From contig OY760175.1 in NCBI GenBank assembly GCA_963663165.1, forward strand, positions 3,968,001 to 4,032,000: 64,000 bases of DNA. Direction: 5' to 3'. The notes under the pieces were generated by a model, which did not search any database, was not told the DNA's origin, and worked only from the letters and a program-made list of their open reading frames with translations. How positions within the stretch are numbered: position 1 is the stretch's first letter; every line of letters begins with the position of its first letter. A program made the position numbers and the translations under genes. The DNA comes from an uncultured Desulfospira sp. (GTDB taxonomy: Bacteria; Desulfobacterota; Desulfobacteria; Desulfobacterales; Desulfobacteraceae). Positions 6,022-18,788 of this stretch are shown here, piece by piece.

Positions 6022-6429
6022 ATGGAAATATATTATGGGATTTTCTCTCCGGACGAAAGCGGCTGGGCTGTCCGGTTCCCGGATGCCCCGGCGGTGAACA
6101 CCTGCGGTGAGGATATCGAACAGGCCCTTGAAATGGCCGTGGACGCCTTAAGCGCAATTATGGTTATGGGCCGGAAAGGGCGAGAGTATGAGGTCCCAAG
6201 GGGGTATGAGGAAATTAAAGCTGAGGCTGAACCCGGGGAGCTTATTTTTCCAGTGATGCCGACGGAAAAGGCGATGGAGGAATACCGACCCAAAAAGCGT
6301 ATTAATGTTATGATCCCGGTGGACCTGCTGGACCGTGTGAATGAACACGTCAAAAGTCAGGATGGGGTTGACCGGTCAAAGTTTATTTGCGGAGCCGTTG
6401 AAAAAAGTCTTGAGATGGAAACTGAATAG
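6022..6429 (+). CDS. hicB: HicB family antitoxin with C-terminal ribbon-helix-helix
   Basis: VRFPDAP..NTCGEDIEQALEMA N-terminus; KRINVMIP..LL..V...RSKFI RHH; follows hicA. Confidence 0.88.
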   Translation: MEIYYGIFSPDESGWAVRFPDAPAVNTCGEDIEQALEMAVDALSAIMVMGRKGREYEVPRGYEEIKAEAEPGELIFPVMPTEKAMEEYRPKKRINVMIPVDLLDRVNEHVKSQDGVDRSKFICGAVEKSLEMETE

Positions 6430-6449
6430 GGGCGGTTATATAGAAGTAC

Positions 6450-6481
6450 AAAAGGGGTTAACCGAAACCGGCTAACCCCTT
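6450..6481. terminator. Stem-loop terminator (original tRNA-Met terminator, probably also ends hicAB)
   Basis: AAGGGGTTA...TAACCCCTT hairpin abutting the att repeat, T-run on minus strand. Confidence 0.6.
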
Positions 6482-6525
6482 GAATTATCTGGTAGCGACG
6501 CAGGGATTTGAACCCCGGACTCTGC
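6478..6525 (-). repeat. att site: 48-bp direct repeat of tRNA-Met 3' portion plus trailer
   Basis: Identical to 18700-18747 (CCTTGAATTATCTGGTAGCGACGCAGGGATTTGAACCCCGGACTCTGC). Confidence 0.92.
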
Positions 6526-7045
6526 TGTTCTACCCGCATGTTGGCCAAATGTGTGCCTTCGCGTTTGTCTATGTCGTGGGCATGTGTGTAAACTTTTTGG
6601 GCAGGGGAGTCAAGACCAATATGGTAGAATTTTTCAGTGAATAACCTGTCTTTAAGTATTGATTGACACAAGCCTTCCAAAGCAATATCAGACCTGAGTG
6701 TCTTTATCATGATAGCTAAACTGAAAGGTGATTTATGAAACGCTTACTTACTGCTTGTTTGTTCGTTGTGTTGTTACTTGCTGCTGATACTTTGGGCTGC
6801 ATCGGCGGGGTATTACCATTACCAGTTCTCAGGGGCCGAAAATTCCACCACAAATTTCTGAGTGCCTGTTATTAAGATGCTTCAGGGAACGGTTACCCCC
6901 CGTGCCCCCGGGCCGGTAACCAGTCTGCTTAATTCCCGGCTAATAACGGCCCGTTTCTATTCAAAATGGTGGCGCTCTTTGAATACTTCCAAGTTAACCG
7001 GGAGTATGCCCCGGACTGTTCAACCAGGAGCGCCGCCCTATGTCC

Positions 7046-7543
7046 TTACCCTGCCTTCAAGACATTATAGATGGTGGCCCGGCTGACCCCGTACGCCTTG
7101 GACAATTGGGTGGGATTCATGCCGTTGCTTCGCTTGCTTCGGATCTCGGATCTCTGCTGGCTGTTGAGCGTTGGCTTACGTCCCTTGTAGACTCCCTGGG
7201 CCTTGGCCCTCTGTATCCCTGCGGTCTGTCTTTCCTTTCTTAGGTTCGTCTCAAATTCAGCAAAGACCCCCAGCATCTGAAGGAAGGCCTTTCCACTGGC
7301 CGTGCTGGTGTCTATCTTCTGGTCCAGGATTTCAAGGCTTGCCCCCTTGTCTCTGAGAGTCTCCATGATGTCGGACAGGTCTTTCATGTTCCTGGCAAGG
7401 CGGTCCAGCTTCCAGACCACAAGCTTTTCTCCCTGGTCAACCATCTTGAGGACGGTATCAAGCTGATCCCGGCCTTTAGTCGTGGTCCCTGACTTCTTTT
7501 CCTCCAGGATCTTAGCGTCAGGACATACCGCACCAAGTCGCAC
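7046..7543 (-). pseudogene. Serine recombinase (resolvase), N-terminally truncated
   Basis: LVVWKLDRLARN, FAEFETNLRKERQ, YKGRKP and C-terminal HTH present; catalytic YxRVS motif absent upstream. Confidence 0.75.
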
Positions 7544-7746
7544 CAGTCTTAGAATTACCCGTTTTTGATTGCCGCATTCGTGTCACCAGAGTGTGTCACG
7601 TATGGTGTACCTTTCGGAACACGCCTGGTATGTCCCAAGACCCGCATGGTTAGATGTAACGTAAAGCCATTTTAATGTTTTACTTGACATTTGTACGTAA
7701 GGTCTTTAGGGTTACGTAACACTGACCCCAATTAGGAGACCACACC

Positions 7747-8340
7747 ATGACAAATGAGCAGGCACAACGTAACGGCAACACCGCCGGGCAGCACATTGGC
7801 TACATTCGGGTAAGCACCATTGACCAGAACACCCAGCGACAACTTGACGGCATCAGGTTGGACCGGACATTCACGGATAAGATCAGTGGCAAGGATGTTA
7901 ACAGGCCGAGTCTTCAAGAGTGCCTAAGTTATGTCCGGCAGGGAGACGCGCTTCATGTCCACAGTATGGATAGACTTGCCCGGAATCTGATGGATCTTCA
8001 AAAGATGGTTGAGGACCTTACGGCCAAGGGTGTGACTGTCCATTTCCACAAGGAAAGCCTGGTGTTCAATAATGACGCCAACGCTATGAGCCACCTAATG
8101 CTCCAGATTATGGGCGCTGTCGCTGAGTTTGAACGGTCGTTGATCCGGGAGCGGCAACAAGAAGGGATCGCCAAGGCCAAGCAAGCAGGCAAGCACCTGG
8201 GGCGGCGTTACAGTATGACAATGGAGCAGGTCAAGGAAGCCATGGCCATGATAGACGGCGGGTCTTCCAAGACTGAAGTCGCTGAGTACTTCGGGATCAG
8301 CCGTCAAAGCCTATATCGGAACCTGGAACGGACGGCGTAA
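7747..8340 (+). CDS. Serine recombinase (resolvase/invertase family)
   Basis: GYIRVST catalytic motif, SMDRLARN, AEFERSLIRERQ, C-terminal HTH; RBS AGGAG. Confidence 0.92.
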   Translation: MTNEQAQRNGNTAGQHIGYIRVSTIDQNTQRQLDGIRLDRTFTDKISGKDVNRPSLQECLSYVRQGDALHVHSMDRLARNLMDLQKMVEDLTAKGVTVHFHKESLVFNNDANAMSHLMLQIMGAVAEFERSLIRERQQEGIAKAKQAGKHLGRRYSMTMEQVKEAMAMIDGGSSKTEVAEYFGISRQSLYRNLERTA

Positions 8341-8748
8341 ATGTGGGCCTGAGGGCTCGATATTTTCGATTTCAGGGCCGTTTGCCACCCATGGTATACG
8401 ACTCTATCAACGGCGGTTGATTGCCGTTCAGATTCATTATTAGGCCGCTCAAATTACTATCAGTAATGTATAGGTTATGCATCATGTGTGCCACAGTTTG
8501 GATCGACTGATAGTCAAGCTATTCCGTCTCGGCACGATTCATGCTTATATTTACATTTAGAGGGACCTCACGCTGCACCAAAATCGACAAAACGTCCCTG
8601 AAATCGTGGTGGTCTGAGCTTTCCAATGGATCTATGGTTCCGGACCGATGACCTTGGTACGTTAGATGCCCTCAGTTCTGAGGAGGGCTCCCACGGCTAC
8701 GCATAGCCCACTACAACCGCCCCCGAAAGCCTACGATTTCAGTAAGAT

Positions 8749-8909
8749 TAACTGAATATCTAAAGAGAAGACGTCGGGCTTACAGTGCCGGTCCATTGTC
8801 CGGCTTTATATATAACCACAATGATGGGTGTCAGGTTAAAACCTGGTGGTCATCATTGTGGTTTCCAGGCTATTTTAGGGTTCCTGAACGTAACTGAATA
8901 TCTAAAGAG
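8749..8909 (+). repeat. 19-bp direct repeat TAACTGAATATCTAAAGAG (8749-8767, 8891-8909)
   Basis: Two identical copies in the apparently non-coding region upstream of the RNase H operon. Confidence 0.8.
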
Positions 8910-9167
8910 GAAAAATCGAATATGGGCCGTATCGCCGGATTCCTCATCTGGGCTTTTGACAATCTGTTTTGGGGCAAAAGGTACGTACCCAATGTTCAAC
9001 CACCCGTCAACCCATAACCATAGGAGAAACCACTATGATTTGACCGCTGGTATTTTGCAAACAATACGCACACCTATTTTCCCAATCTTGCGCCGAATTT
9101 CAATGCACAGACCCAATTTTATACCGGTTGGAGTTCGACGGCCATAACCCCCTTGGAGAACAATGCA

Positions 9168-9374
9168 ATGCCTTCAAAACCGGCCCCAAAGCCCGAAAGT
9201 ACAACAGTAAGAGAACATCTTGACCCCCTGGCTAAGGCCCTGGCTAACCCCCGAAGTCTACGGGCCGCTATCAATGCCAAGTGCTATGACTGCTGTTGTT
9301 ACCAGCGAATTGAAGTAACTAAATGTACATCTACCGACTGCCCTCTTCACAACCTGCGGCCCTGGCAGAGATAA
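9168..9374 (+). CDS. Small Cys-rich (putative Zn-binding) phage-like protein
   Basis: AINAKCYDCC...EVTKC...CPL..LRP pattern; RBS GGAG. Confidence 0.6.
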   Translation: MPSKPAPKPESTTVREHLDPLAKALANPRSLRAAINAKCYDCCCYQRIEVTKCTSTDCPLHNLRPWQR

Positions 9375-9411
9375 GCCCAGGATCGCCAATTTATTACAGG
9401 AGAATATCATT

Positions 9412-9731
9412 ATGAAAGACAACCCACAGACAACCCCCAGTTGCGGTCCGTCGTAAGCATCAACAGGCATGGATACCAGCGTACCACCTTGTCAGGCCGC
9501 CGGTCCCTGTACCCGATCAACACCAGGATAGACAGGGAGTCCCATGACCACCTGGAAAGCCTTGTGGCTTACTATAATGGGATCACCGGTCTCAAGGTCC
9601 GGCCTTGTGTGATCATAAGACGTGCCCTGGCTGTACTTGCAGGCCGTATACCCAATGCTGACCCGGCGCTTGAACAAGCGGCAATCGTTCAGTGTAGCCA
9701 TTTGGAAGATCACCATAGGGAGACATTATGA
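9412..9731 (+). pseudogene. Hypothetical protein, probably frameshifted near start
   Basis: RBS AGGAGA + ATG 9412 is out of frame with ORF 9441-9731; removing an 11-bp duplication (AGACAACCCAC) or adding one C to a C5 run restores frame; stop overlaps RNase H start. Confidence 0.45.
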
Positions 9732-10402
9732 ATTATCACGTTATCAGTACCGGTAATGGGACCGGGGGGATCTTCACCAGCAAGGCAAACGCCATGGAAT
9801 TTATGAAGACTCATTCCGGGACCTACAGGGTTATGGACCATCTGCCCGATCGGATTCCACCAAAGGATGCCTTCCGGCCTGAACCCGACGTTGAACCTGT
9901 AGTTCCCACGACTGTAAAGGATCTGGTGGGGCCACTCACGATCTATACGGATGGTTCTTGTCATGGGAATCCTGGACCAGGCGGCTATGGTGTGGTGATC
10001 AAAGACGAATCCCCGGCGTCAATGCTTGAGTTATCCCAGGGTTTCAGCAGGACTACCAGTAATCGGATGGAACTTATGGCCGTTATCACTGTTCTGGAGA
10101 CAATCCCGGATTTGTCCACCACCATCCATAGTGATAGTGCATATGTGATCAGCAGTATTAACCAGGGATGGGCCAAGGGATGGAGGGCCAAGGGATGGCT
10201 TAAGCGTGACGGCAAACCTGCCCTAAATACTGATCTATGGGAACGCCTGTTAAATCTTATGGAGAATTTCAATGATCTCACCTTTAGACATGTTAAAGGG
10301 CACAGTGGAAATTCTCTGAATGAAAAGGCTGACAGTCTGGCGAACAGTGCGGCTGACAGTGATAACTTGATTGGGGATATTGGATATGGGTCTAAGGACT
10401 GA
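9728..10402 (+). CDS. rnhA: Ribonuclease HI with N-terminal extension
   Basis: IYTDGSCHGNPGPGG, TTSNRMELMA, HSDSAYV, HVKGHSG..NEKADSLA: complete DEDD active site. Confidence 0.92.
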   Translation: MNYHVISTGNGTGGIFTSKANAMEFMKTHSGTYRVMDHLPDRIPPKDAFRPEPDVEPVVPTTVKDLVGPLTIYTDGSCHGNPGPGGYGVVIKDESPASMLELSQGFSRTTSNRMELMAVITVLETIPDLSTTIHSDSAYVISSINQGWAKGWRAKGWLKRDGKPALNTDLWERLLNLMENFNDLTFRHVKGHSGNSLNEKADSLANSAADSDNLIGDIGYGSKD

Positions 10403-10444
10403 GGGTTGTTCCTTTCCTGTTAACCTTTAATATAGAGAGGATAT

Positions 10445-10520
10445 GACCTTTAGTTGACCTTTAGTTGACCTTAGTTGACCTTAGTTGGCCTTAGTTGGCC
10501 TTAGTTGACCTTAGTTGACC
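10445..10520 (+). repeat. Tandem 10/11-bp array G(A/G)CCTT(T)AGTT x7 plus partial (iteron-like)
   Basis: 2x GACCTTTAGTT, 2x GACCTTAGTT, 2x GGCCTTAGTT, 1x GACCTTAGTT, GACC; followed by AT-rich tract before the polymerase-like gene. Confidence 0.88.
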
Positions 10521-10629
10521 AGATACTAACCCTAAGTAGACACCCCCAGTACCAGATTAATAAGACACTTTTTGTGGTGAAATTTCACTATTTTGAACTT
10601 TTTCATAACACACCAGTAATAAAGGACAA

Positions 10630-11940
10630 TTGCCTATGACAAATAACCATCCCCCGGTTAACGCCTGGGATCTCTATGAGGGGCGCCGGGCTGTTATTGA
10701 CCAGTATCGTGACCCGGATAATCAGGAACGCTTCAATAACTACCGGTATATCACAATGAATTTATGGAGTGAGGGCCCCCAGGTTGATCGCCTGGTTACA
10801 AAACTGTCCCTCATGATGTGGAGCGCCGACCATCAAAAACGGCATGATAACTTCAAGGTGGTCTTACTGAATCTCTTGAAGATATACGACAGCGACCCAT
10901 CCCGATATTTAGGATATCACCGGAACAATAATTTCTACACCGGCCTGAAAGCCCGCTTCAATCCTGCCGGGATAAGCCGCTTGGTCAATGATATTATTGA
11001 CAGCCTGGCAAAGGAAGACTTGGTGGAGAATCATCAGGGTAGATACTGGCGGGATCTAAAGATGGGCTACATAAGCAAAGTACGGACCACAAAGGATCTT
11101 ATTGACCTGATGACCGTCCACGGGGTCACTCCTGATCTGATCACCCGACACCCTGATACTGAGGTCATTATTCTCAAAGGCCCTAAGACCTGGAAGCATA
11201 GAGGGGGCCGTATGGTCAAAGTCAGCGGTCAATATCAGGAATACAACGATACCCAGGAAACGGGCGCCATGCGGGAACGCCTGGTAGCCTACAATCAGTT
11301 TATGGCTGGTGTAACCCTGGAGTATGACGGCGCTGTCATTCCCATTGGCCCTACCCGCCGGATTTTCAATGGGTCTTGGGACCAGGGAGGACGCTTCTAT
11401 GGTGGATTCTGGCAGAGCCTTTCAAAGGATAAGCGGTCCACCATAAAGCTGAACGGGGAGCCGGTCATTGAGTTGGACTACGGGAGCCTACACACCCACT
11501 TGTTGTACTGCCGGACCAATGCCACCCCGGAGGGGGATCTTTATGATTTACCCGGCGTTTCCCGCAAAGTGGCAAAACGTGCCGTTCTTCTGATGATCGG
11601 GAGCCGCCGCCGGTCCAATGTAATTCGGAACCTGGAGTCCTTTATCAGGGCTGAATACCCCAAGTCTGACCTTGAGGCCAAAGCCGTTACAACGGCCCTG
11701 GAAGACCGCCATAAGCCCCTGGAGAATCTTTGGTACAATGGCCGGGGTCTTGACCTTCAACACCAGGACAGCCTTATATGTGGCCGTATTCTGACCACCC
11801 TGACTGCCATGGGGATACCCTGCCTAAGCCTGTATGATAGCTTTATTGTTCCGGAACGGTATGAGGAATGCTTGAGAGGGCTCATGGTGGCTTGCTTCCG
11901 GGAGATCACCGGGGTGGCTTATGATCCACCCATAGATTAA
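10630..11940 (+). CDS. Compact family-A (PolA/T7-RNAP superfamily)-like polymerase
   Basis: GGRFYGGFWQ, motif A ELDYGSLH, motif B RKVAK, LQHQDS, motif C SLYDSFIV; 436 aa, no exonuclease domains recognised. Confidence 0.62.
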   Translation: MPMTNNHPPVNAWDLYEGRRAVIDQYRDPDNQERFNNYRYITMNLWSEGPQVDRLVTKLSLMMWSADHQKRHDNFKVVLLNLLKIYDSDPSRYLGYHRNNNFYTGLKARFNPAGISRLVNDIIDSLAKEDLVENHQGRYWRDLKMGYISKVRTTKDLIDLMTVHGVTPDLITRHPDTEVIILKGPKTWKHRGGRMVKVSGQYQEYNDTQETGAMRERLVAYNQFMAGVTLEYDGAVIPIGPTRRIFNGSWDQGGRFYGGFWQSLSKDKRSTIKLNGEPVIELDYGSLHTHLLYCRTNATPEGDLYDLPGVSRKVAKRAVLLMIGSRRRSNVIRNLESFIRAEYPKSDLEAKAVTTALEDRHKPLENLWYNGRGLDLQHQDSLICGRILTTLTAMGIPCLSLYDSFIVPERYEECLRGLMVACFREITGVAYDPPID

Positions 11941-11950
11941 GGCGGGGATG

Positions 11951-11992
11951 CCCATCCCGGTGAAGGATCATTGCGATAATCACCGGGATGGG
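11951..11992. terminator. Hairpin between convergent genes
   Basis: 13-bp perfect IR CCCATCCCGGTGA / TCACCGGGATGGG. Confidence 0.55.
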
Positions 11993-12001
11993 CCGGGGTG
12001 G

Positions 12002-12235
12002 CTATGACATCGGGGCCGACTCGGTTCTCTTCTGTGTCTTAATTCCCAGACCTGCTGCCTTTATGACAGACCTCAGTCCATTGGTCTTAGTTTCCAGTTC
12101 TGTGGTCAGTAACTCAATAAATGCCTGATTGTCAGAGTCCAATTGATCCCATTCAACAAAGGTATCGGATTGTTCATCAAAGATAAAAGCGCCGGGGATA
12201 ACTTCAATTTTCGTTTGATCAGTTCTAAGCTCCAT
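12002..12235 (-). CDS. Hypothetical protein
   Basis: ATG 12235 after GGAG RBS; 77 aa. Confidence 0.5.
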   Translation of the reverse strand: MELRTDQTKIEVIPGAFIFDEQSDTFVEWDQLDSDNQAFIELLTTELETKTNGLRSVIKAAGLGIKTQKRTESAPMS

Positions 12236-13700
12236 AGGTGTCTCCATTCGTTTTAGGTTTGTGGGACAGGCGGTCCCGAACATGCCACGAATAGATCATG
12301 ATGGCCTAATCTTGTCAAGCAAATTATTCTATTATTTCAAGTATTTATATACTTTTCTGCAACAGTTAACAAGGTGGCAATAATTGTTGATTGGAAAAAT
12401 AACGTGGGTGCCTTGCCGGTGCTGGTTACCCTTACTCATGGTGATTCTACCGATTGACAACATTCCCAAGACCACCTTTAGAAATCCTAAAAGTCATTTT
12501 TTTCGTCATCGTCTAAACCGCTTACAGCCTCTTGGTTTGCCCCCCACACTTAGCCCAGCGTGACCTTTTCAGAGGCTCAAGGTCCACCTCATAGCTCAAC
12601 TTAAGGATCGCAGCATCATATAGGACATCCACCTGGTATTTCTTCCCGTACCGCCCCATGGTCTCTCCCTGGAGAACATGACCAGTGAGTTCGTCAATGA
12701 GACTGTCCTTGATTAACTGCTGTTTGAGATTGTCAGTCAGGGTGTGCCGGAAGCTGTGATAGACCTTTTTAGGTGAGTCAATCCCACACGCTTTACGGAA
12801 GCGTCCAAACCATTTGGTTGCCTTGTGGCCGTAGTTATCGTTCTGGTATGGCAGTTCGGGAAACAGGCGAGTCTCACCCTTGCTTCTCAGATACTCCACA
12901 TAGCCCTTGAGGTTCAGTTCATCGCCGACAAATGGGTGGATCGGTATGGTCCGGTGCCCAGAGTCGCTTTTAACGCTGATTGTTTCATCCTGGGCGTCTT
13001 CCTGGAAGGTGAACGTATAGACGCCGTCAATGGTCTGGATGTCATCAAGGCGCAACTGGCAGAGTTCGTTGAGTCTGGCTCCGGTGTATAGTCCCAGGAT
13101 CGGTAACCAAAATTGATACGGCTCGGTGAATATGTCTTTGGTGTATCCTGGTGCTCCAAACAGCGCTTTCAGATCATCCGTGCTGAATGCATCTCTTTGC
13201 TTGTCCGGACTGACCCGCTTGGTTTTGACCTTCTTACCTTCAGCGTAGTTCGTGTCCATGTAGCCGTTGCCGACACACCACTTGAAAAACGCACTAAGGC
13301 TGCTCAAATAACGGTTTACCGTGGATTCACTCATGGTGGGCGCATCAACAGTTTTATTGATCTGGATGATCTCGGGAACGGTCTTGCTTTGGAAAACTTT
13401 CTTTTTGTTCATCCCCGCTTGATGAGATTCAAATAGTGTAACGGTATTATAGATTTAAGACATCAACAAAATATCAAATTTTTGTATAATTTAAGCTTGT
13501 TGCAAGAGGGGGTCAATAAAAACAGAGTTGCAAAATAATGTAACGGGCTAAAAATAATTCAATAATGATCTGTGGTTTCGCGTTTTTCAACAATCAGTCA
13601 GGCAAAAATCGACATCAAAATATATAAGGATAAAATACAGGCAGGCCAACTTCGGCTTATACCAAAGTGACCTGTTGATGCAGATAGGTTGTGATAAGGA

Positions 13701-14363
13701 TTATTGGGGAGGCAGATCTGATATAAATTCCAGGGCAAGATTAATATCAACAAATTGATGATTCAGTTCCTTTGCTCTGTCCCGGCAGTCTGTACAGATT
13801 TCTTTAAATTTGCGCATATCACCTTTAACAGACATATAAATCTGCTCAACGGCTTCCTGCTGGATGTCTTTGTATTCTTCAATGAAGTCCTCGACCTCTA
13901 TGGGATACAAAATCAGGGTTTTCAAGCGGCTGAGTATATCAGGATGGTTCCGGCTCAAATAAGTTCTCACCTTCGGCAAGCCCGCAAATACGATGGGAAC
14001 CCCGGCATCAATAATCCGTTTGAGATATGGCCAAACCCGGGCGTCCAAGTCATTAGCCTCATCTATGACGATAAAACAATTGGAGAGATTACAGATCATT
14101 TTCAGGTACTGGGGAGTCCGGCGGTAAGTGGCAGTGGCCTCATAATTTAATTCCTTGAGTATTGCGGCCAGGGTTTCATGTATATTAAACAGAGACTCAA
14201 CCCATACAGAATGGAGCTTTTTGGGGTGCAGCAATTTTAAAAACCGGGTTTTTCCTGCACCAAAGCCGCCTTCAATGAGGACGCTTTGGCCTCTGTAGAT
14301 CCGGTTATAAGTGGCAGACAAGTATGAGACCCTTCGTTTATCACTGATAAAATCCTCTTTCAT
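13701..14363 (-). CDS. AAA+ ATPase (MuB/TnsC/ExeA-like transposition regulator)
   Basis: Walker A GGFGAGKT, Walker B IVIDEA, Arg finger ILSRL; ATGA-coupled to transposase. Confidence 0.82.
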   Translation of the reverse strand: MKEDFISDKRRVSYLSATYNRIYRGQSVLIEGGFGAGKTRFLKLLHPKKLHSVWVESLFNIHETLAAILKELNYEATATYRRTPQYLKMICNLSNCFIVIDEANDLDARVWPYLKRIIDAGVPIVFAGLPKVRTYLSRNHPDILSRLKTLILYPIEVEDFIEEYKDIQQEAVEQIYMSVKGDMRKFKEICTDCRDRAKELNHQFVDINLALEFISDLPPQ

Positions 14364-16027
14364 GTTATGTCTCCGTGGGATGCATAAGTGGCTACATGGT
14401 TTGTATTTAAAGATTTTTGGCAGTCGAGCATAAATGCATTGAACAGAGCCTGATTTTTACGGTCATCCGGCTGGTTCATCTTTTTCATGTAATCTGCGTA
14501 CCTTGATTGATTATGCTTCAGCACTTGTTCCGCCCGGGCCAGGGTGATGCCTTTATGATAAACTTCGATTAAAACAGGCCGGTCAACGGCCATATTGTGC
14601 TTTTCTAAAAGAGCGATAATGGTGTCAAGTTCATCAGGCGGCACAGGCGAAGGTTCCGGTGCCGGCGGTCTGTCAAAGGGCTTTTTTGCAATGGCTTCGC
14701 CCAACAGTATACCGTCTTCATTTTGCTCAAAAATAAAAAGCTTGTCCTTGTATCTGGATATTTTCACCGGTGTGCTTTTATGTTTGCTGAACTTATCTGC
14801 ACCACTGGTCACATAATAATCCCGCTTGTCATGACGGATGGTTCTGTTTTTGGATACGGTGGCTTTGATTTTTCTGTAGCCGTACTTCATATATTCCTGA
14901 ACCTGGTTCGGGGTAAAAAGCAAGGTGTCTGCCCGGGTTGATAAAAAATCATCAAATTTCTGTGCCGGCACCCAGGCACTGACCACCCCGTCTTCGGTAA
15001 AATAATGTTGTGTATGATTATGAACGTTTCGGTAGTCGCTGAGCATAGTGCTGCTCCTTAATTCCTGAAGGCTGATATCAAGGAGGGTTACCGTAATTTT
15101 TTCCTTTCTTCCCCGCTTGAAGTCATATTCGGTAACGGTTTTCACAATCCTGTCCTCAAAAGCTTTGATAATCCGTATTTCAAAATTGTGAAGGCTCCGG
15201 TGTGAAGATTCCAGGTGTGCCTTATCCTTGGGTGAATACACCCTTGAAAAATCCGCAGCCAAATAGAAGCCTTGCGGTGTAGAGTGCGCAAGGTTAATGG
15301 CATTGATGGGACGTTTTAGGTTTAAAAAACCCTTTGCCTGGTCAGGCCTGATACCGATTTCTTGCAAAGGGAAAGGGGTACTCAATAAAAAACGGGTAAA
15401 AAGATCCACAGAGTTCAGGCTGCTTTCGGTAAAATAAAAGTCCAGGATAAACATGTTCCTGGAACCGGTATCAAATATTTCAATAACCTGTGGCTTTTGC
15501 CAGTTACCGTGTTCATCTCTGATCCTTAGATATTGAAATTTGCAGCCGTCAACCTGGATCAACGCAAATACCGGCACCGACTTAAAGGCATGAATTACCG
15601 GGACCTGGTCCTGTTCATCCTCTTTTTCCAGGTAAAATTTAAGATTTTCCCTTTTGACGCATCGCCGAAGTGCATGAAGACTGATGGGTCTGCCCAATTC
15701 CTGTTCAAGCCAGTAATGATAATTTTTAATGGTCCTGGCTTTCCGGGTGATAAAAATGAATCCCCGGGATGAGGGATCGCATGACGCCTTGACCATTTCA
15801 ATAAACCGTCTTCTGGTTTGCTCATCTATTGCTCTTGGCCGTCCGCTGCACTTGCGGCCTTCCATAACTCCTTTTTCAACCAATAAAAGGGCTGGCGGGA
15901 TAATTCCGGTTTTCTTGTACTGGTCCTTGTAATATTTTTTGGATCGTCTCTTGGCAGACCCGGTTTTATTCATGATTTTTTTGTGCAGCAGTAAATGAAA
16001 ACGGTCATCAATCGTCAGATCATTCAT
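14360..16027 (-). CDS. DDE transposase/integrase (Mu-like rve fold)
   Basis: GRPR HTH region; putative triad IQVD, IRPD, PKDKAHLE; start ATG 16027 after GGAG. Confidence 0.78.
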   Translation of the reverse strand: MNDLTIDDRFHLLLHKKIMNKTGSAKRRSKKYYKDQYKKTGIIPPALLLVEKGVMEGRKCSGRPRAIDEQTRRRFIEMVKASCDPSSRGFIFITRKARTIKNYHYWLEQELGRPISLHALRRCVKRENLKFYLEKEDEQDQVPVIHAFKSVPVFALIQVDGCKFQYLRIRDEHGNWQKPQVIEIFDTGSRNMFILDFYFTESSLNSVDLFTRFLLSTPFPLQEIGIRPDQAKGFLNLKRPINAINLAHSTPQGFYLAADFSRVYSPKDKAHLESSHRSLHNFEIRIIKAFEDRIVKTVTEYDFKRGRKEKITVTLLDISLQELRSSTMLSDYRNVHNHTQHYFTEDGVVSAWVPAQKFDDFLSTRADTLLFTPNQVQEYMKYGYRKIKATVSKNRTIRHDKRDYYVTSGADKFSKHKSTPVKISRYKDKLFIFEQNEDGILLGEAIAKKPFDRPPAPEPSPVPPDELDTIIALLEKHNMAVDRPVLIEVYHKGITLARAEQVLKHNQSRYADYMKKMNQPDDRKNQALFNAFMLDCQKSLNTNHVATYASHGDIT

Positions 16028-16577
16028 TATCTGCTCCCTTTGATACAATCTTTTCGTATATGACCCGGTGCCATAACAATGCGGCCTGACGGGAGGTTTT
16101 CTGCCAATGATCATGCTGGGCCACACGGACCTGTTCAAGCATTGCCTCTACAGCAGCCATGTATTCATTGGCAATTCGATCTGTCAGATCCGGGTTGCTT
16201 ACCGGAACCGTTTTCCGGGCCTCAATAAATCTTTTGATATTTCGTGCGGTCAGTTCCATGCCGCTGTTTATGATTTCCCTCCAGATACTGCGTTGTTCTA
16301 TGGAGTCCATTTGAGTAAGGGGACGGACCTGGGATTCGTTGGCAGGCAGCCTGTCGCCAATTGGCGACAAATTGTAGATCACTTCATAGGCTCTGATCAG
16401 GCGGTAGGCATAAGCCTTGCCCATATCCCACCGCTGCCTGGTATATGTTTCAAACGACTCAAACAAAGCCTGTTTGTATAAACGGTTATCACGAATTTCT
16501 TTCAAGGCCTGGCCGATTTTATAAAAACATTCCTGGTTGCGACCAATCAGGGTTTCAAGCTCAAGCAACCGTTCCAT
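16020..16577 (-). CDS. Helical DNA-binding accessory protein (DUF3102/ParB-like)
   Basis: IGQALKEIRD.RLY....SFE.Y...RW......AYRLI, ESQVRPL, TAR.I pattern seen in mobile-element proteins. Confidence 0.55.
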   Translation of the reverse strand: MERLLELETLIGRNQECFYKIGQALKEIRDNRLYKQALFESFETYTRQRWDMGKAYAYRLIRAYEVIYNLSPIGDRLPANESQVRPLTQMDSIEQRSIWREIINSGMELTARNIKRFIEARKTVPVSNPDLTDRIANEYMAAVEAMLEQVRVAQHDHWQKTSRQAALLWHRVIYEKIVSKGADNE

Positions 16578-16579
16578 AT

Positions 16580-16936
16580 TTACTGCCCTGCCGGCATGGG
16601 TCTGCCGACCATAGCAGCAAGAGCCGTCAATTTTGCTGCCTGAACCTGGGGTGCAGTATTTATTTGTTTCAAAAACAAAACACTATCCCGGAAGCCATAA
16701 CCCTTGATTTTCATGACAAGGTCGATGGTATTAAAATTCTTTTCGCATCTGAAGCACCGGGCCAGGTTCGTGGCTGGATTTACAGCGGTTTGAAATTCAT
16801 TGCACAAAGGGCATAGAAAACGAAAATAGCCATCCCTGATCTTGGATGGAATCTGTAAATGATCCCTGATCAGCATATCAACAGGGATATTGTTTCTCAG
16901 TTCAAATAATTGCCTGGATGAAAATCTGTTCTTCAA
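16580..16936 (-). CDS. CHC2 zinc-finger (primase ZBD-like) protein
   Basis: CPLC...ARCFRC.KNFNTIDLVM....GFRDSV.FL; TTG start after AGGAGG. Confidence 0.72.
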   Translation of the reverse strand: MKNRFSSRQLFELRNNIPVDMLIRDHLQIPSKIRDGYFRFLCPLCNEFQTAVNPATNLARCFRCEKNFNTIDLVMKIKGYGFRDSVLFLKQINTAPQVQAAKLTALAAMVGRPMPAGQ

Positions 16937-17192
16937 AAGACACCTCCTTGTTTTTTAAATTTCAGGTGCCTTTTTTATATCATCGGCCAGAGCCGTCTGT
17001 CAGTTGCCTCTTAAACTGGAATGGGGATTACTTTGTTGATATCTACCTGTATTATCAGCGGATTACGCACATGATGCCTCTTAGAATTAAACCTCGATTA
17101 GTCTGTCAATATACCTTTACATTACAGTTAGTTATCCCAACCATGTCTCTTGAAACCAATACTCGATTAGTCGTTTATGCCAAGGGGATATT

Positions 17193-17570
17193 TTATGGAA
17201 ACCCCCGGATTATTTCCCTGCTGTAACCGATAATTTGGGTAACCAGGTATTGGATGACAATTGCCGGCTTGATTCCATATTCCGTTATAATGACTTCCAT
17301 TGGCAAAACCGGCTCTTTGCATTTTTGATATGAAAGAACAGAAAGACTCCCGGATGTTTGTTGCTCCTCAGCTTCTTCAAGCTTTTTTGCCAGGTAGTTA
17401 TTTTTACAGACAGCTTTGTTTTTCCTGTTCCACTCTTCACATTGCCTCCGGTGAAGCTCATTTTGGCAAGCCGGGCTACATGTTTTCTGCCGTCCTTTTT
17501 GTCTTACATCAGGAGTGAACCATTTACGGCAAATAGAGCAAGGACGTTTTCCTCGTGAATTTTTTGCCAT
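17193..17570 (-). CDS. Zinc-ribbon-like hypothetical protein
   Basis: RPCSICRKWF.PD.RQ..RQKTCS.ACQ; first gene of transposon. Confidence 0.6.
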   Translation of the reverse strand: MAKNSRGKRPCSICRKWFTPDVRQKGRQKTCSPACQNELHRRQCEEWNRKNKAVCKNNYLAKKLEEAEEQQTSGSLSVLSYQKCKEPVLPMEVIITEYGIKPAIVIQYLVTQIIGYSREIIRGFP

Positions 17571-18711
17571 TATTTCTTCTCCAAGATTTGAATCAGGGAG
17601 ATTTTATGTACCAAATTTTGAAGGATGCAGCAGCGGGGTCTGTCGGCGGGATAGGCGGGGTATGATTTTTATTTTATTTGCTGGGTATAGCGGCGGGATA
17701 TCTGCCCGTTACATTATTTCGCTATGAAACTGCGGGGTAAGCGTTACACTTTTTGAATCTTACCACCCGCTGGTAATTGCAGGAGAGTGTCTTTTAGTGC
17801 CTTGACGGTAGGATGATCAATACGGCCAACATCCGTATCTTCGCCAAGGATTTGAAGCATGACTCTAAAATGACCATTGTAGGCCTTTATCGTCCGGGGC
17901 TTCCATAGACCCGCTTGAATATGTTCGGTTTTCCACTCTTGGATCAGATCCTTGATTAACGGACCGGAGGGTTTCGGCTGGGTGGTGACGGTTGGTGCTT
18001 GAACCGCCGAGGCCCCGGCGGGGACTTCCTGTTGTGGCGGCAGGAAGTTGTCATCACTATAATCGCCTTCGTTTCGGCGCTTTTCGATGGCAAGCACTTT
18101 GATCTGAGCCTTGAGGGTCTCTCGGCACATTTCAATGTAATCCACGGTGTCATTAGGAAGTTCATAATTGTTGGTCTCAAGGATATGATCAACAACCCGT
18201 CCTACCTTGGAATAGTCTCCTTTTTTGAGCTGTTCTTGGGCATCTTCAGTGAAATCGTCAATCTGGGTCAAATGCTCATCACGTATGTGAGGCATATCAC
18301 CCTCACCGTTGTAAACCGGTTCATAAGAAACCCGTTGCTCTTCCTCGTATTCAAGGCATTCATGAATAAAACCGTCAATCATCTGCTTTAATTTCTTGGG
18401 GTGTAGTAGCATTGGTGTCTTCCTGATTTTCCTGAATAGCTGGTGGACCCTTCCGGCAATGAGTTGTGCAAGTTGTGATGCCGTTCTGTGGTCAGCCCCT
18501 CTGAGGGATCTTCTTAGCTCTTTGAGTCCAACCTGAGGTTGGAGGTCAGACGGGATATTCATCCTGAAGTAATAGCCCGATTTGTTCTGTACCAGGTACA
18601 TGTCTTCCTTCACAATGTGTGTAACATTTGTGTGTAAGAAGCCACATATTGCCCAATCAAAAAGCCCCGTACTCTCGTAAGTAACCGAAAGTACAGGGGC
18701 CTTGAATTATC

Positions 18712-18788
18712 TGGTAGCGACGCAGGGATTTGAACCCCGGACTCTGCGGATATGAGCCGCATGCTCTGACCAACTGAGCTACGTCGCC
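18712..18788 (-). tRNA. tRNA-Met (CAT), probably elongator
   Basis: GGCGACGTAGCTCAGTTGGTCAGAGCATGCGGCT-CAT-ATCCGCAGAGTCCGGGGTTCAAATCCCTGCGTCGCTACCA; cloverleaf with encoded CCA (Ile2 not fully excluded). Confidence 0.93.

Follow-up and report, generated by a model that had tools for sequence, protein, structure and literature searches.

An integrated element of an uncultured Desulfospira sp. with a divPolA2/TV-Pol-type polymerase and an apparently co-inherited RNase HI

We analysed a 64,000-nucleotide stretch of an uncultured Desulfospira sp. genome (GenBank assembly GCA_963663165.1, contig OY760175.1, positions 3,968,001 to 4,032,000; hereafter the window, with positions counted from its first nucleotide), which contains a small tRNA-targeted element with genes for a minimal family-A polymerase and a ribonuclease HI (RNase HI). 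Named relatives of its proteins also place the host, apparently, within the Desulfobacterales. The ends of the element are formed by a 48-bp direct repeat (6478–6525 and 18700–18747; 100% identical), of which the second copy overlaps a tRNA-Met gene (18712–18788). In a related strain the site is empty, as a contig from run X7 joins 6477 to 18700. After subtraction of a 4,346-bp insertion sequence (IS; 13420–17765) the element measures ~7.9 kb, in agreement with a preliminary description of the window, which had proposed an island of about 8 kb bounded by attachment (att) sites. The gene order is truncated resolvase, intact resolvase, an 830-bp spacer, a Cys-rich open reading frame (ORF), a 96-amino-acid ORF, RNase HI, a tandem repeat array, polymerase, an orphan ORF and integrase. 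The preliminary description had also reported a co-oriented run of a Cys-rich gene, an RNase HI, seven repeats, an A+T tract and a 436-amino-acid ORF, all of which were found in place, and had recognised no helicase, Rep, relaxase or capsid gene; Pfam scans of 18 ORFs and PHROGs scans of 14 detected none of these families either.

The polymerase gene (10630–11940, + strand) encodes 436 amino acids with an N-terminal winged-helix-like domain and was assigned to the divPolA2/TV-Pol type by PHROG 4756, fold and motifs. With an AlphaFold2 model (pLDDT 89.9, pTM 0.83), the best Foldseek matches were Pol I-type enzymes (E 8e-5) and POLRMT (E 7e-4). A VIA structure search returned apicoplast PolA (Z 13.9, rmsd 3.6, 223 residues aligned), yeast mitochondrial RNA polymerase (mtRNAP; Z 13.6, rmsd 3.1, 217 aligned), T7 RNA polymerase (T7 RNAP; Z 12.7, rmsd 3.3, 235 aligned) and Klenow (Z 12.7). 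These structure searches upheld the PolA/T7-RNAP fold that had been proposed for the ORF. The PolA-like match covers residues ~175–436 (~260 residues), and residues 47–170 resemble winged-helix proteins at Z 5–7, which is weak and possibly due to chance. At the place of the thumb, the model has one long helix (209–226) preceding a β-hairpin. The thumb of TV-Pols is described as a two-helix coiled coil (PMC2579912), and the excerpted account of divPolA2 in PMC11348598 reports no homologous thumb.

Matching to PHROG 4756 was strong (E 4e-47), and all of 27 aligned proteins of the family belonged to this group. Neither the polymerase nor 26 relatives have a Pfam family, and the ESM Atlas search yielded unnamed clusters only. 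Searching solved structures by sequence gave nothing relevant with the single polymerase, and a 100-sequence profile retrieved only TRF2 (E 0.014), which is not relevant. Clustered at 50% identity, the family comprises at least 6,632 representatives at E ≤ 0.001 and 4,207 at 1e-10. Viral members were readily found: the best viral structure matches (BFVD) had E values of 1e-18 to 4e-25 and included a barbavirus protein, the profile aligned with AUR84708, a divPolA2 representative (hhalign probability 99.2, E 3e-19; BLASTP 22% identity, E 4e-11), and one relative (P0042) matched 115 Rheinheimera phage records. A homologue also occurs in Vibrio cholerae phage ICP1 (L090 3119–4786; ICP1_2006_E ORF100), where it is annotated as hypothetical.

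Judged by these matches, the polymerase itself is not new but a divPolA2 homologue of the TV-Pol kind. Its family has been described computationally, and the activity is predicted only. The divPolA2 proteins of barbaviruses and of Vibrio and Aeromonas phages, as excerpts of PMC11348598 present them, are homologous, of the same size, and likewise consist of an N-terminal globular domain and a palm without an exonuclease; the same excerpts leave an RNA polymerase role undecided. They place divPolA2 in lytic phages beside a regular replicative polymerase, whereas the polymerase studied here sits on a chromosomal, tRNA-integrated element. Of the hallmarks of TV-Pols (Iyer, Abhiman and Aravind 2008; PMC2579912), a β-hairpin with an invariant Arg, two palm Asp residues and an RxxxK in the fingers are present, and, like a subset of TV-Pols, the protein has an extra N-terminal domain. 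Compared by description, that domain may differ, being predicted all-helical in TV-Pols and alpha/beta, winged-helix-like here. TV-Pols neighbour a gamma-delta resolvase, lambda-type integrase or transposase, as this gene neighbours a resolvase and an integrase, and have been proposed to be primase-polymerases of replicative mobile elements (PMC2579912). We base the likeness on motifs and gene context.

We then compared the active-site motifs with the sequences of T7 RNAP and E. coli Pol I. The ORF contains G253GRFYG, E281LDYGSLH, R312xxxK316, Q377xxD380S and Y402DSF, and R255, D283, R312, K316 and D403 are invariant in 100/100 aligned homologues. The Tyr of motif C had been considered a reason to doubt activity. 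Since Tyr402 is common to five of the 14 closest relatives, including four of the five nearest, it is no mark of a dead gene. D251-x-x-G-R-x-Y257 resembles D421WRGRVY of T7 RNAP (421–427), and the Q/H-x-x-D motif is of RNAP type (T7 784–787). Motif C reads HDS in most of the aligned homologues (His in 95 and Ser in 92 of the 100 sequences), like H811DS of T7 RNAP (811–813) and unlike the HDE of Pol I. Residue 288, five positions after the Asp of motif A, where Pol I has its sugar-gate Glu710, is His in 83/100, and the 762-like position is Leu320. In Pol I, Glu710 discriminates against ribonucleotides (excerpts of PMC7581432). Taken together, the RNAP-type signatures make an RNA product plausible.

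The phage protein AUR84708 (L089 25469–26761) retains residues of DNA-polymerase type at these positions, with a gate Glu and a motif C that reads Asp-Glu. Because it keeps these residues, we assign the shift towards RNAP-type motifs to the island branch, a placement that draws on one phage sequence; on the same single comparison, the family may be split into DNA- and RNA-making branches. The element polymerase thus differs from divPolA2 in having His for the gate Glu and Asp-Ser for Asp-Glu in motif C, and further in its apparent linkage to RNase HI. The section of PMC11348598 entitled 'Two novel phage PolAs' mentions neither islands nor RNase H.

The neighbourhoods of 220 non-redundant homologous loci, the window itself not counted, were surveyed (78 from GTDB, 76 from metagenomes, 45 from the same phylum and 21 viral). 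An integrase or a tRNA gene lay within 8 kb in 47 of the 49 GTDB loci with at least 5 kb on both flanks (integrase in 42, resolvase in 17), supporting the mobile, TV-Pol-type context that the preliminary description had named. The integrase was the sole widely shared neighbour cluster (84/221 loci, window included), and the cargo, which includes restriction systems, varies from island to island. Two sister elements could be fully delimited. One (L206) occupies 8.4 kb between duplicated tRNA-Glu genes and shares the resolvase (63% identity), the 96-amino-acid ORF (42%) and the polymerase (35%); the other (L208) occupies 7.6 kb at the same tRNA-Met site and shares the integrase (62%). Neither contains an RNase H gene or a repeat array.

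The RNase HI gene of the element (9728–10402, + strand; PF00075, E 5e-37) encodes a type 1 enzyme with a short N-terminal domain and an intact D-E-D-D set plus His (D75, E115, D136, H192, D202). A linkage between polymerase and RNase H, as the preliminary description had suggested, does not hold family-wide: RNase H was found within 8 kb at 1/220 loci, and there outside the att sites of that element (149 loci had ≥ 1.3 kb upstream, and the profile detects distant host rnhA at E 3e-30). Among the closest relatives a linkage is indicated indirectly, by shared contig records and matching clades. The best protein-database matches were P0185 (57%) and P0186 (54%) for RNase HI and P0002 (60%) and P0003 (56%) for the polymerase. 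P0002 and P0185, and likewise P0003 and P0186, share source, contig count and contig record (22,206 bp and 34,332 bp, respectively), where ~0.006 exact size matches above 10 kb were expected among 42 × 123 record pairs. A third match of 1,398 bp (P0007 with P0263) was within chance (0.47 expected) and was not used. An interim reading of the RNase HI as one-off cargo was overturned for this subclade by the shared contig records.

In phylogenetic trees the RNase HI of the window formed a clade with P0185, P0186 and P0191 (support 98/95) nested in a chromosomal family. The four proteins share derived residues, and the catalytic residues are invariant at 54–57% identity. A matching clade, made up of the five nearest polymerases, appeared in the polymerase tree (SH-aLRT 98, quick tree). 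RNase HI with this N-terminal extension is encoded on the chromosome in 11 of the 160 genomes of the family and sits among host genes in all ten loci that were expanded; the host also has its own rnhA. The element clade is derived from such accessory host copies. A recent pick-up from the tRNA-Met flank of the genus of G505–G507 was rejected by a tree test, in which the window enzyme did not group with the chromosomal copies at that flank (p-AU 0.0026). The data are most simply explained by a single ancient capture of a host RNase HI, retained in at least three diverged elements, and the captured enzyme seems to have been co-inherited with the polymerase in this subclade. TV-Pols were described as never having a conserved nuclease linkage (PMC2579912), which holds family-wide (219/220 loci) and apparently not here.

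This RNase HI linkage in one subclade of a known polymerase kind is what appears to be new. Text searches found no paper on the pairing, with subscription papers outside their coverage and the neighbourhoods in the 2008 supplement possibly bearing on it. No DNA from the relatives linked to RNase H turned up in GTDB (best match 33%), in IMG/VR or in searches of the family, order and class genomes, and the best metagenome match among those listed reached 34%.

Several known systems were compared. CCPol-MP-Cch2 of SCCmec, in the parts of PMC7581432 and bioRxiv 10.1101/2022.12.02.518924 that describe it, is an exonuclease-less family-A polymerase that is encoded by an integrative element and capable of de novo initiation; it keeps Glu710 and Phe762 (excerpts of PMC7581432), where the present enzyme has His288 and Leu320. 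In ColE1 priming, RNase H processes an RNA:DNA hybrid to a 3'-OH (excerpts of PMC4555960), which served us as a working model for the RNase HI. According to the same excerpts ColE1 uses RNAP, RNase HI and Pol I of the host, encodes none of them, and has RNA I and RNA II; an Rfam scan of 6400–13500 with E up to 1 gave no match here, including none to RNA I or RNA II. Iteron replicons have a Rep gene and spaced repeats, whereas no Rep match was found here and the array is contiguous. The excerpted tycheposon paper (bioRxiv 10.1101/2020.12.28.424599) describes small, tRNA-targeted elements with an inward tyrosine integrase at one end, an optional replication module and cargo, much like the present one; it names primases, polymerases and helicases, and the term 'RNase H' is absent from the main text. 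By the tests run, the polymerase is a divPolA2 homologue and the element resembles a TV-Pol element, and is not a CCPol, iteron or ColE1 replicon.

We propose, tentatively and with a chance somewhat below even, that the polymerase is an RNA-priming initiator whose RNA:DNA hybrids are handled by the RNase HI, on a tRNA-targeted element. Comparison of the loci shows a backbone of tyrosine integrase and winged-helix/family-A polymerase, and one branch would have captured a host RNase HI and retained it, as co-inheritance indirectly indicates. Following excision, the polymerase would dock on a site of the element through its winged helix and, to judge from its motifs, initiate a short chain, of RNA or of RNA mixed with DNA, with no need of a primer, in T7-type fashion. 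RNase HI would then process the hybrid, either trimming it to a 3'-OH primer in the ColE1 way or removing the primer and so standing in for the 5' nuclease domain that the polymerase lacks. The host or a helper would supply the helicase and carry out the bulk of DNA synthesis, and the 10-bp array would be unnecessary for this route. Because most elements of the family use no RNase H of their own, the enzyme would be an accessory, and those elements could rely on that of the host. The present copy is probably stranded, its integrase being split by the IS. Of the earlier suggestion that the element replicates after excision from a polymerase-made RNA primer, the RNA product is plausible from the motifs, and the excision step suffers from the split integrase of this copy. 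A bolder version, in which the island branch is a minimal T7-like RNA primase/polymerase and the subclade a self-priming integrative replicon with its own primer-maturing RNase HI, a ColE1-type start and no known Rep, primase or helicase, seems unlikely to us.

A number of observations weigh against the proposed RNA-priming role. Pol I and T7-type RNAPs tied in the fold search, and the profile alignments were non-significant (E 0.045 with T7 RNAP, 0.22 with Pol I), leaving short motifs as the basis for equating residues; the Tyr-Gly that both enzyme types have in motif B is missing, and catalysis by this branch is a prediction. CCPol, the sole characterised TV-Pol, makes DNA primers and needs an OB-fold/SSB-like (single-strand-binding protein-like) partner and a helicase (excerpts of PMC7581432), none of which was seen here. 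Among 62 neighbour clusters that recurred in at least three loci, the 30 scanned with Pfam contained no replicative helicase, the helicase-type matches being restriction subunits only. As to RNase HI, it is rare near homologues as given above, presence on the same contig of 22 or 34 kb is not adjacency to the polymerase, two long branches (0.87 and 0.98) occur in the RNase H clade, and a chromosomal RNase HI flanks the same tRNA-Met site in three genomes of one genus. Finally, read depth over the element was 169, much like the 176–186 of the flanks (contigs of run X3, possibly the source sample).

Alternatively, the protein could be a DNA primase-polymerase, in line with the proposal of Iyer et al. 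and with CCPol, or a gap-filling enzyme, and the RNase HI a long-retained cargo gene, kept because it benefits the host or for general clean-up of R-loops, and with no functional tie to the polymerase. We regard this as a possible though rather unlikely explanation. It would account for the 219 homologous loci without RNase H and for the ten expanded chromosomal RNase HI loci of the family, which contain no polymerase, integrase or resolvase; the chromosomal occurrence in 11/160 genomes, the variable cargo of the islands, the DNA-type residues of AUR84708 and the DNA primers of CCPol (PMC7581432, as excerpted) fit as well. Against it, polymerase and RNase HI form parallel clades of similar divergence (56–60% and 54–57%) in at least three elements, more than the usual turnover of cargo should leave behind; RNase HI also overlaps the backbone ORF 9441–9731 in the same orientation, and the island branch has RNAP-type motifs. 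These same motifs, together with the tie of mtRNAP and T7 RNAP for best structural match, would suit a miniature single-subunit RNA polymerase that transcribes the genes of the element from a promoter of its own, bound by the winged helix. Because the RNA-displacement parts of T7 RNAP are missing, R-loops would form, and RNase HI would clear them. Yutin et al. consider that divPolA2 might act as an RNAP, and in phages its gene comes in addition to a normal replicative polymerase (both in excerpts of PMC11348598); furthermore, the absence of a helicase partner points the same way. A transcriptase is nevertheless quite improbable, given that the polymerase part has ~260 residues compared with the 832–887 modelled in T7 and mitochondrial RNAP chains, that many elements have little else to transcribe, and that the element yielded no shared repeat of promoter-like character.

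The preliminary description had placed an iteron-like origin at the repeat array, and a self-contained replicon can be imagined, with the winged helix bound to the seven repeats and the A+T tract melted, where the polymerase would make an RNA primer and RNase HI would mature it. The array (10449–10520; Tandem Repeats Finder score 122, 95% matches) consists of seven contiguous 10/11-bp units (two of 11 bp, five of 10 bp), and an A+T-rich tract (10555–10630; 72%, top 1% of the genome's 76-nt windows) lies ahead of the polymerase gene. What speaks for the array itself is only its period of one helical turn and the adjacent tract, between rnh and pol; the winged-helix domain and the RNase HI link in the subclade would agree with such a replicon. 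Arrays (period 6–40, ≥ 3 copies, within 600 bp) were no more frequent near homologues (2/175 upstream, 2/188 downstream) than in control windows (17/2,312), a count that leaves out the DNA of the RNase H-linked relatives. Nor is there one in L206 or L208, the units stand head-to-tail without spacers, and the host genome has 22 arrays of the same class (period 8–25, ≥ 5 copies, ≥ 85% matches), i.e. 21 besides this one. The lack of enrichment and the host background led us to reject the array as an iteron origin; an origin role is unsupported, the array is most likely a minisatellite, and we hold the self-contained replicon very improbable. The sequence of two array units (dimer) had no exact match in IMG/VR.

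With at least 6,632 clusters and no Pfam model, the polymerase family is a backbone component of many tRNA islands and also occurs in phages including ICP1, and it may make DNA or RNA. The RNase HI-retaining subclade with its RNAP-type motifs provides a genomic clue towards RNA and a small two-enzyme system. If the RNA-priming proposal is true, no T7-like RNA polymerase/primase would be smaller, and small genomic islands without a known Rep or primase would have a way to replicate; if it is false, the element is one more island with a known polymerase of predicted function.

Another site of interest lies between the resolvase and the Cys-rich ORF. Two perfect 19-bp direct repeats (8749–8767 and 8891–8909), 142 bp apart and found nowhere else in the genome, flank a 50-nt hairpin (8814–8863). 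The DNA fold of 8749–8909 had a z-score of −3.67, with 0/200 shuffles as stable, in a region picked for its hairpin; the spacer as a whole (8340–9167) was not unusually structured (z −1.14). The site had no Rfam match. It is at least as good a candidate control or origin site as the array, and may also be a recombination site. Past the polymerase stop codon, a perfect 14-bp GC-rich hairpin (11950–11993) is a probable terminator or 3' stabiliser. Promoter and terminator scans of the element remained at chance level.

Upstream of RNase HI, the Cys-rich ORF (9168–9374, + strand) encodes 68 amino acids from an ATG, belongs to a phage-type family (ESM Atlas 0.92, clusters mostly viral) and probably binds Zn; sister locus L224 has a homologue (E 1e-6), likewise on the upstream side of its polymerase gene. 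The 96-amino-acid ORF (9441–9731, + strand) was absent from the preliminary description. It had no Pfam or PHROG match, and its homologue in L206 lies directly upstream of the polymerase, marking it as a backbone gene of an unnamed family. At the distal side, the att copy at 6478–6525, a duplicate of the tRNA-Met 3' end, forms the boundary, as supported by the direct repeat and the empty-site joint. It is followed by a truncated serine resolvase (7046–7543, − strand), which matches only positions 31–144 of PF00239; the N-terminal strand that bears the catalytic Ser is not encoded in any of the three frames. The intact small serine resolvase of gamma-delta type (7747–8340, + strand; PF00239 E 1e-38, plus HTH_7) has homologues of 63% (L206) and 72% (L224) identity in sister elements. 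Beyond the polymerase lies a 93-amino-acid orphan ORF (12002–12283, − strand) with no Pfam, PHROG or locus homologue.

The tyrosine integrase is divided into a C-terminal catalytic part (12522–13412, − strand; PF00589), 62% identical to residues 276–566 of the intact L208 integrase, and an N-terminal part with DUF6538 (17766–18613, − strand; PF20172), 32% identical to its residues 5–281. The proximal att copy and the tRNA-Met(CAT) gene follow (18700–18788, − strand). The dividing IS-like, multi-copy transposon (13420–17765, − strand; PHROG 310/296) is no part of the element proper; it has TG..CA ends, 24-bp terminal inverted repeats and a 6-bp target duplication, and inside it lie ORFs for a DDE transposase, an AAA ATPase and a CHC2 zinc-finger protein, plus two others. 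About ten copies, identical or diverged, occur in the genome, one of them itself interrupted. With the integrase in two pieces, the element is probably unable to excise without help. No excision-circle joint was found among 15 of 23 joints (contigs), which does not show its absence.

Among the homologous loci, 18 have a second polymerase homologue or piece within 5 kb of the first (e.g. L181 6922–8379). Genomes of the same order carry a longer polymerase form of ~600 amino acids (L212–L223, L291–L298) in a conserved operon with genes for a MerR-type helix-turn-helix protein, DUF932, RadC and DUF2958, and in some of these loci a large serine recombinase replaces the tyrosine integrase. Rha-type regulators were present in both delimited sister elements (L206 9854–10822, L208 8335–8688), suggesting phage-satellite ancestry of these elements.

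A third tRNA-Met att copy lies ~1 kb left of the window (genome C1, 3966918–3966981) and marks an older tandem island that reaches up to position 6477. Its contents include an IS, AlpA and HicAB, and genes that we take to be PEP-CTERM-like or DUF1566-like. In runs X1 and X7, joints and loose ends (6477/6513, 7062–7429, 12591–12741) indicate that related strains appear to have another insert at the same att site and carry resolvase- and integrase-like pieces elsewhere.

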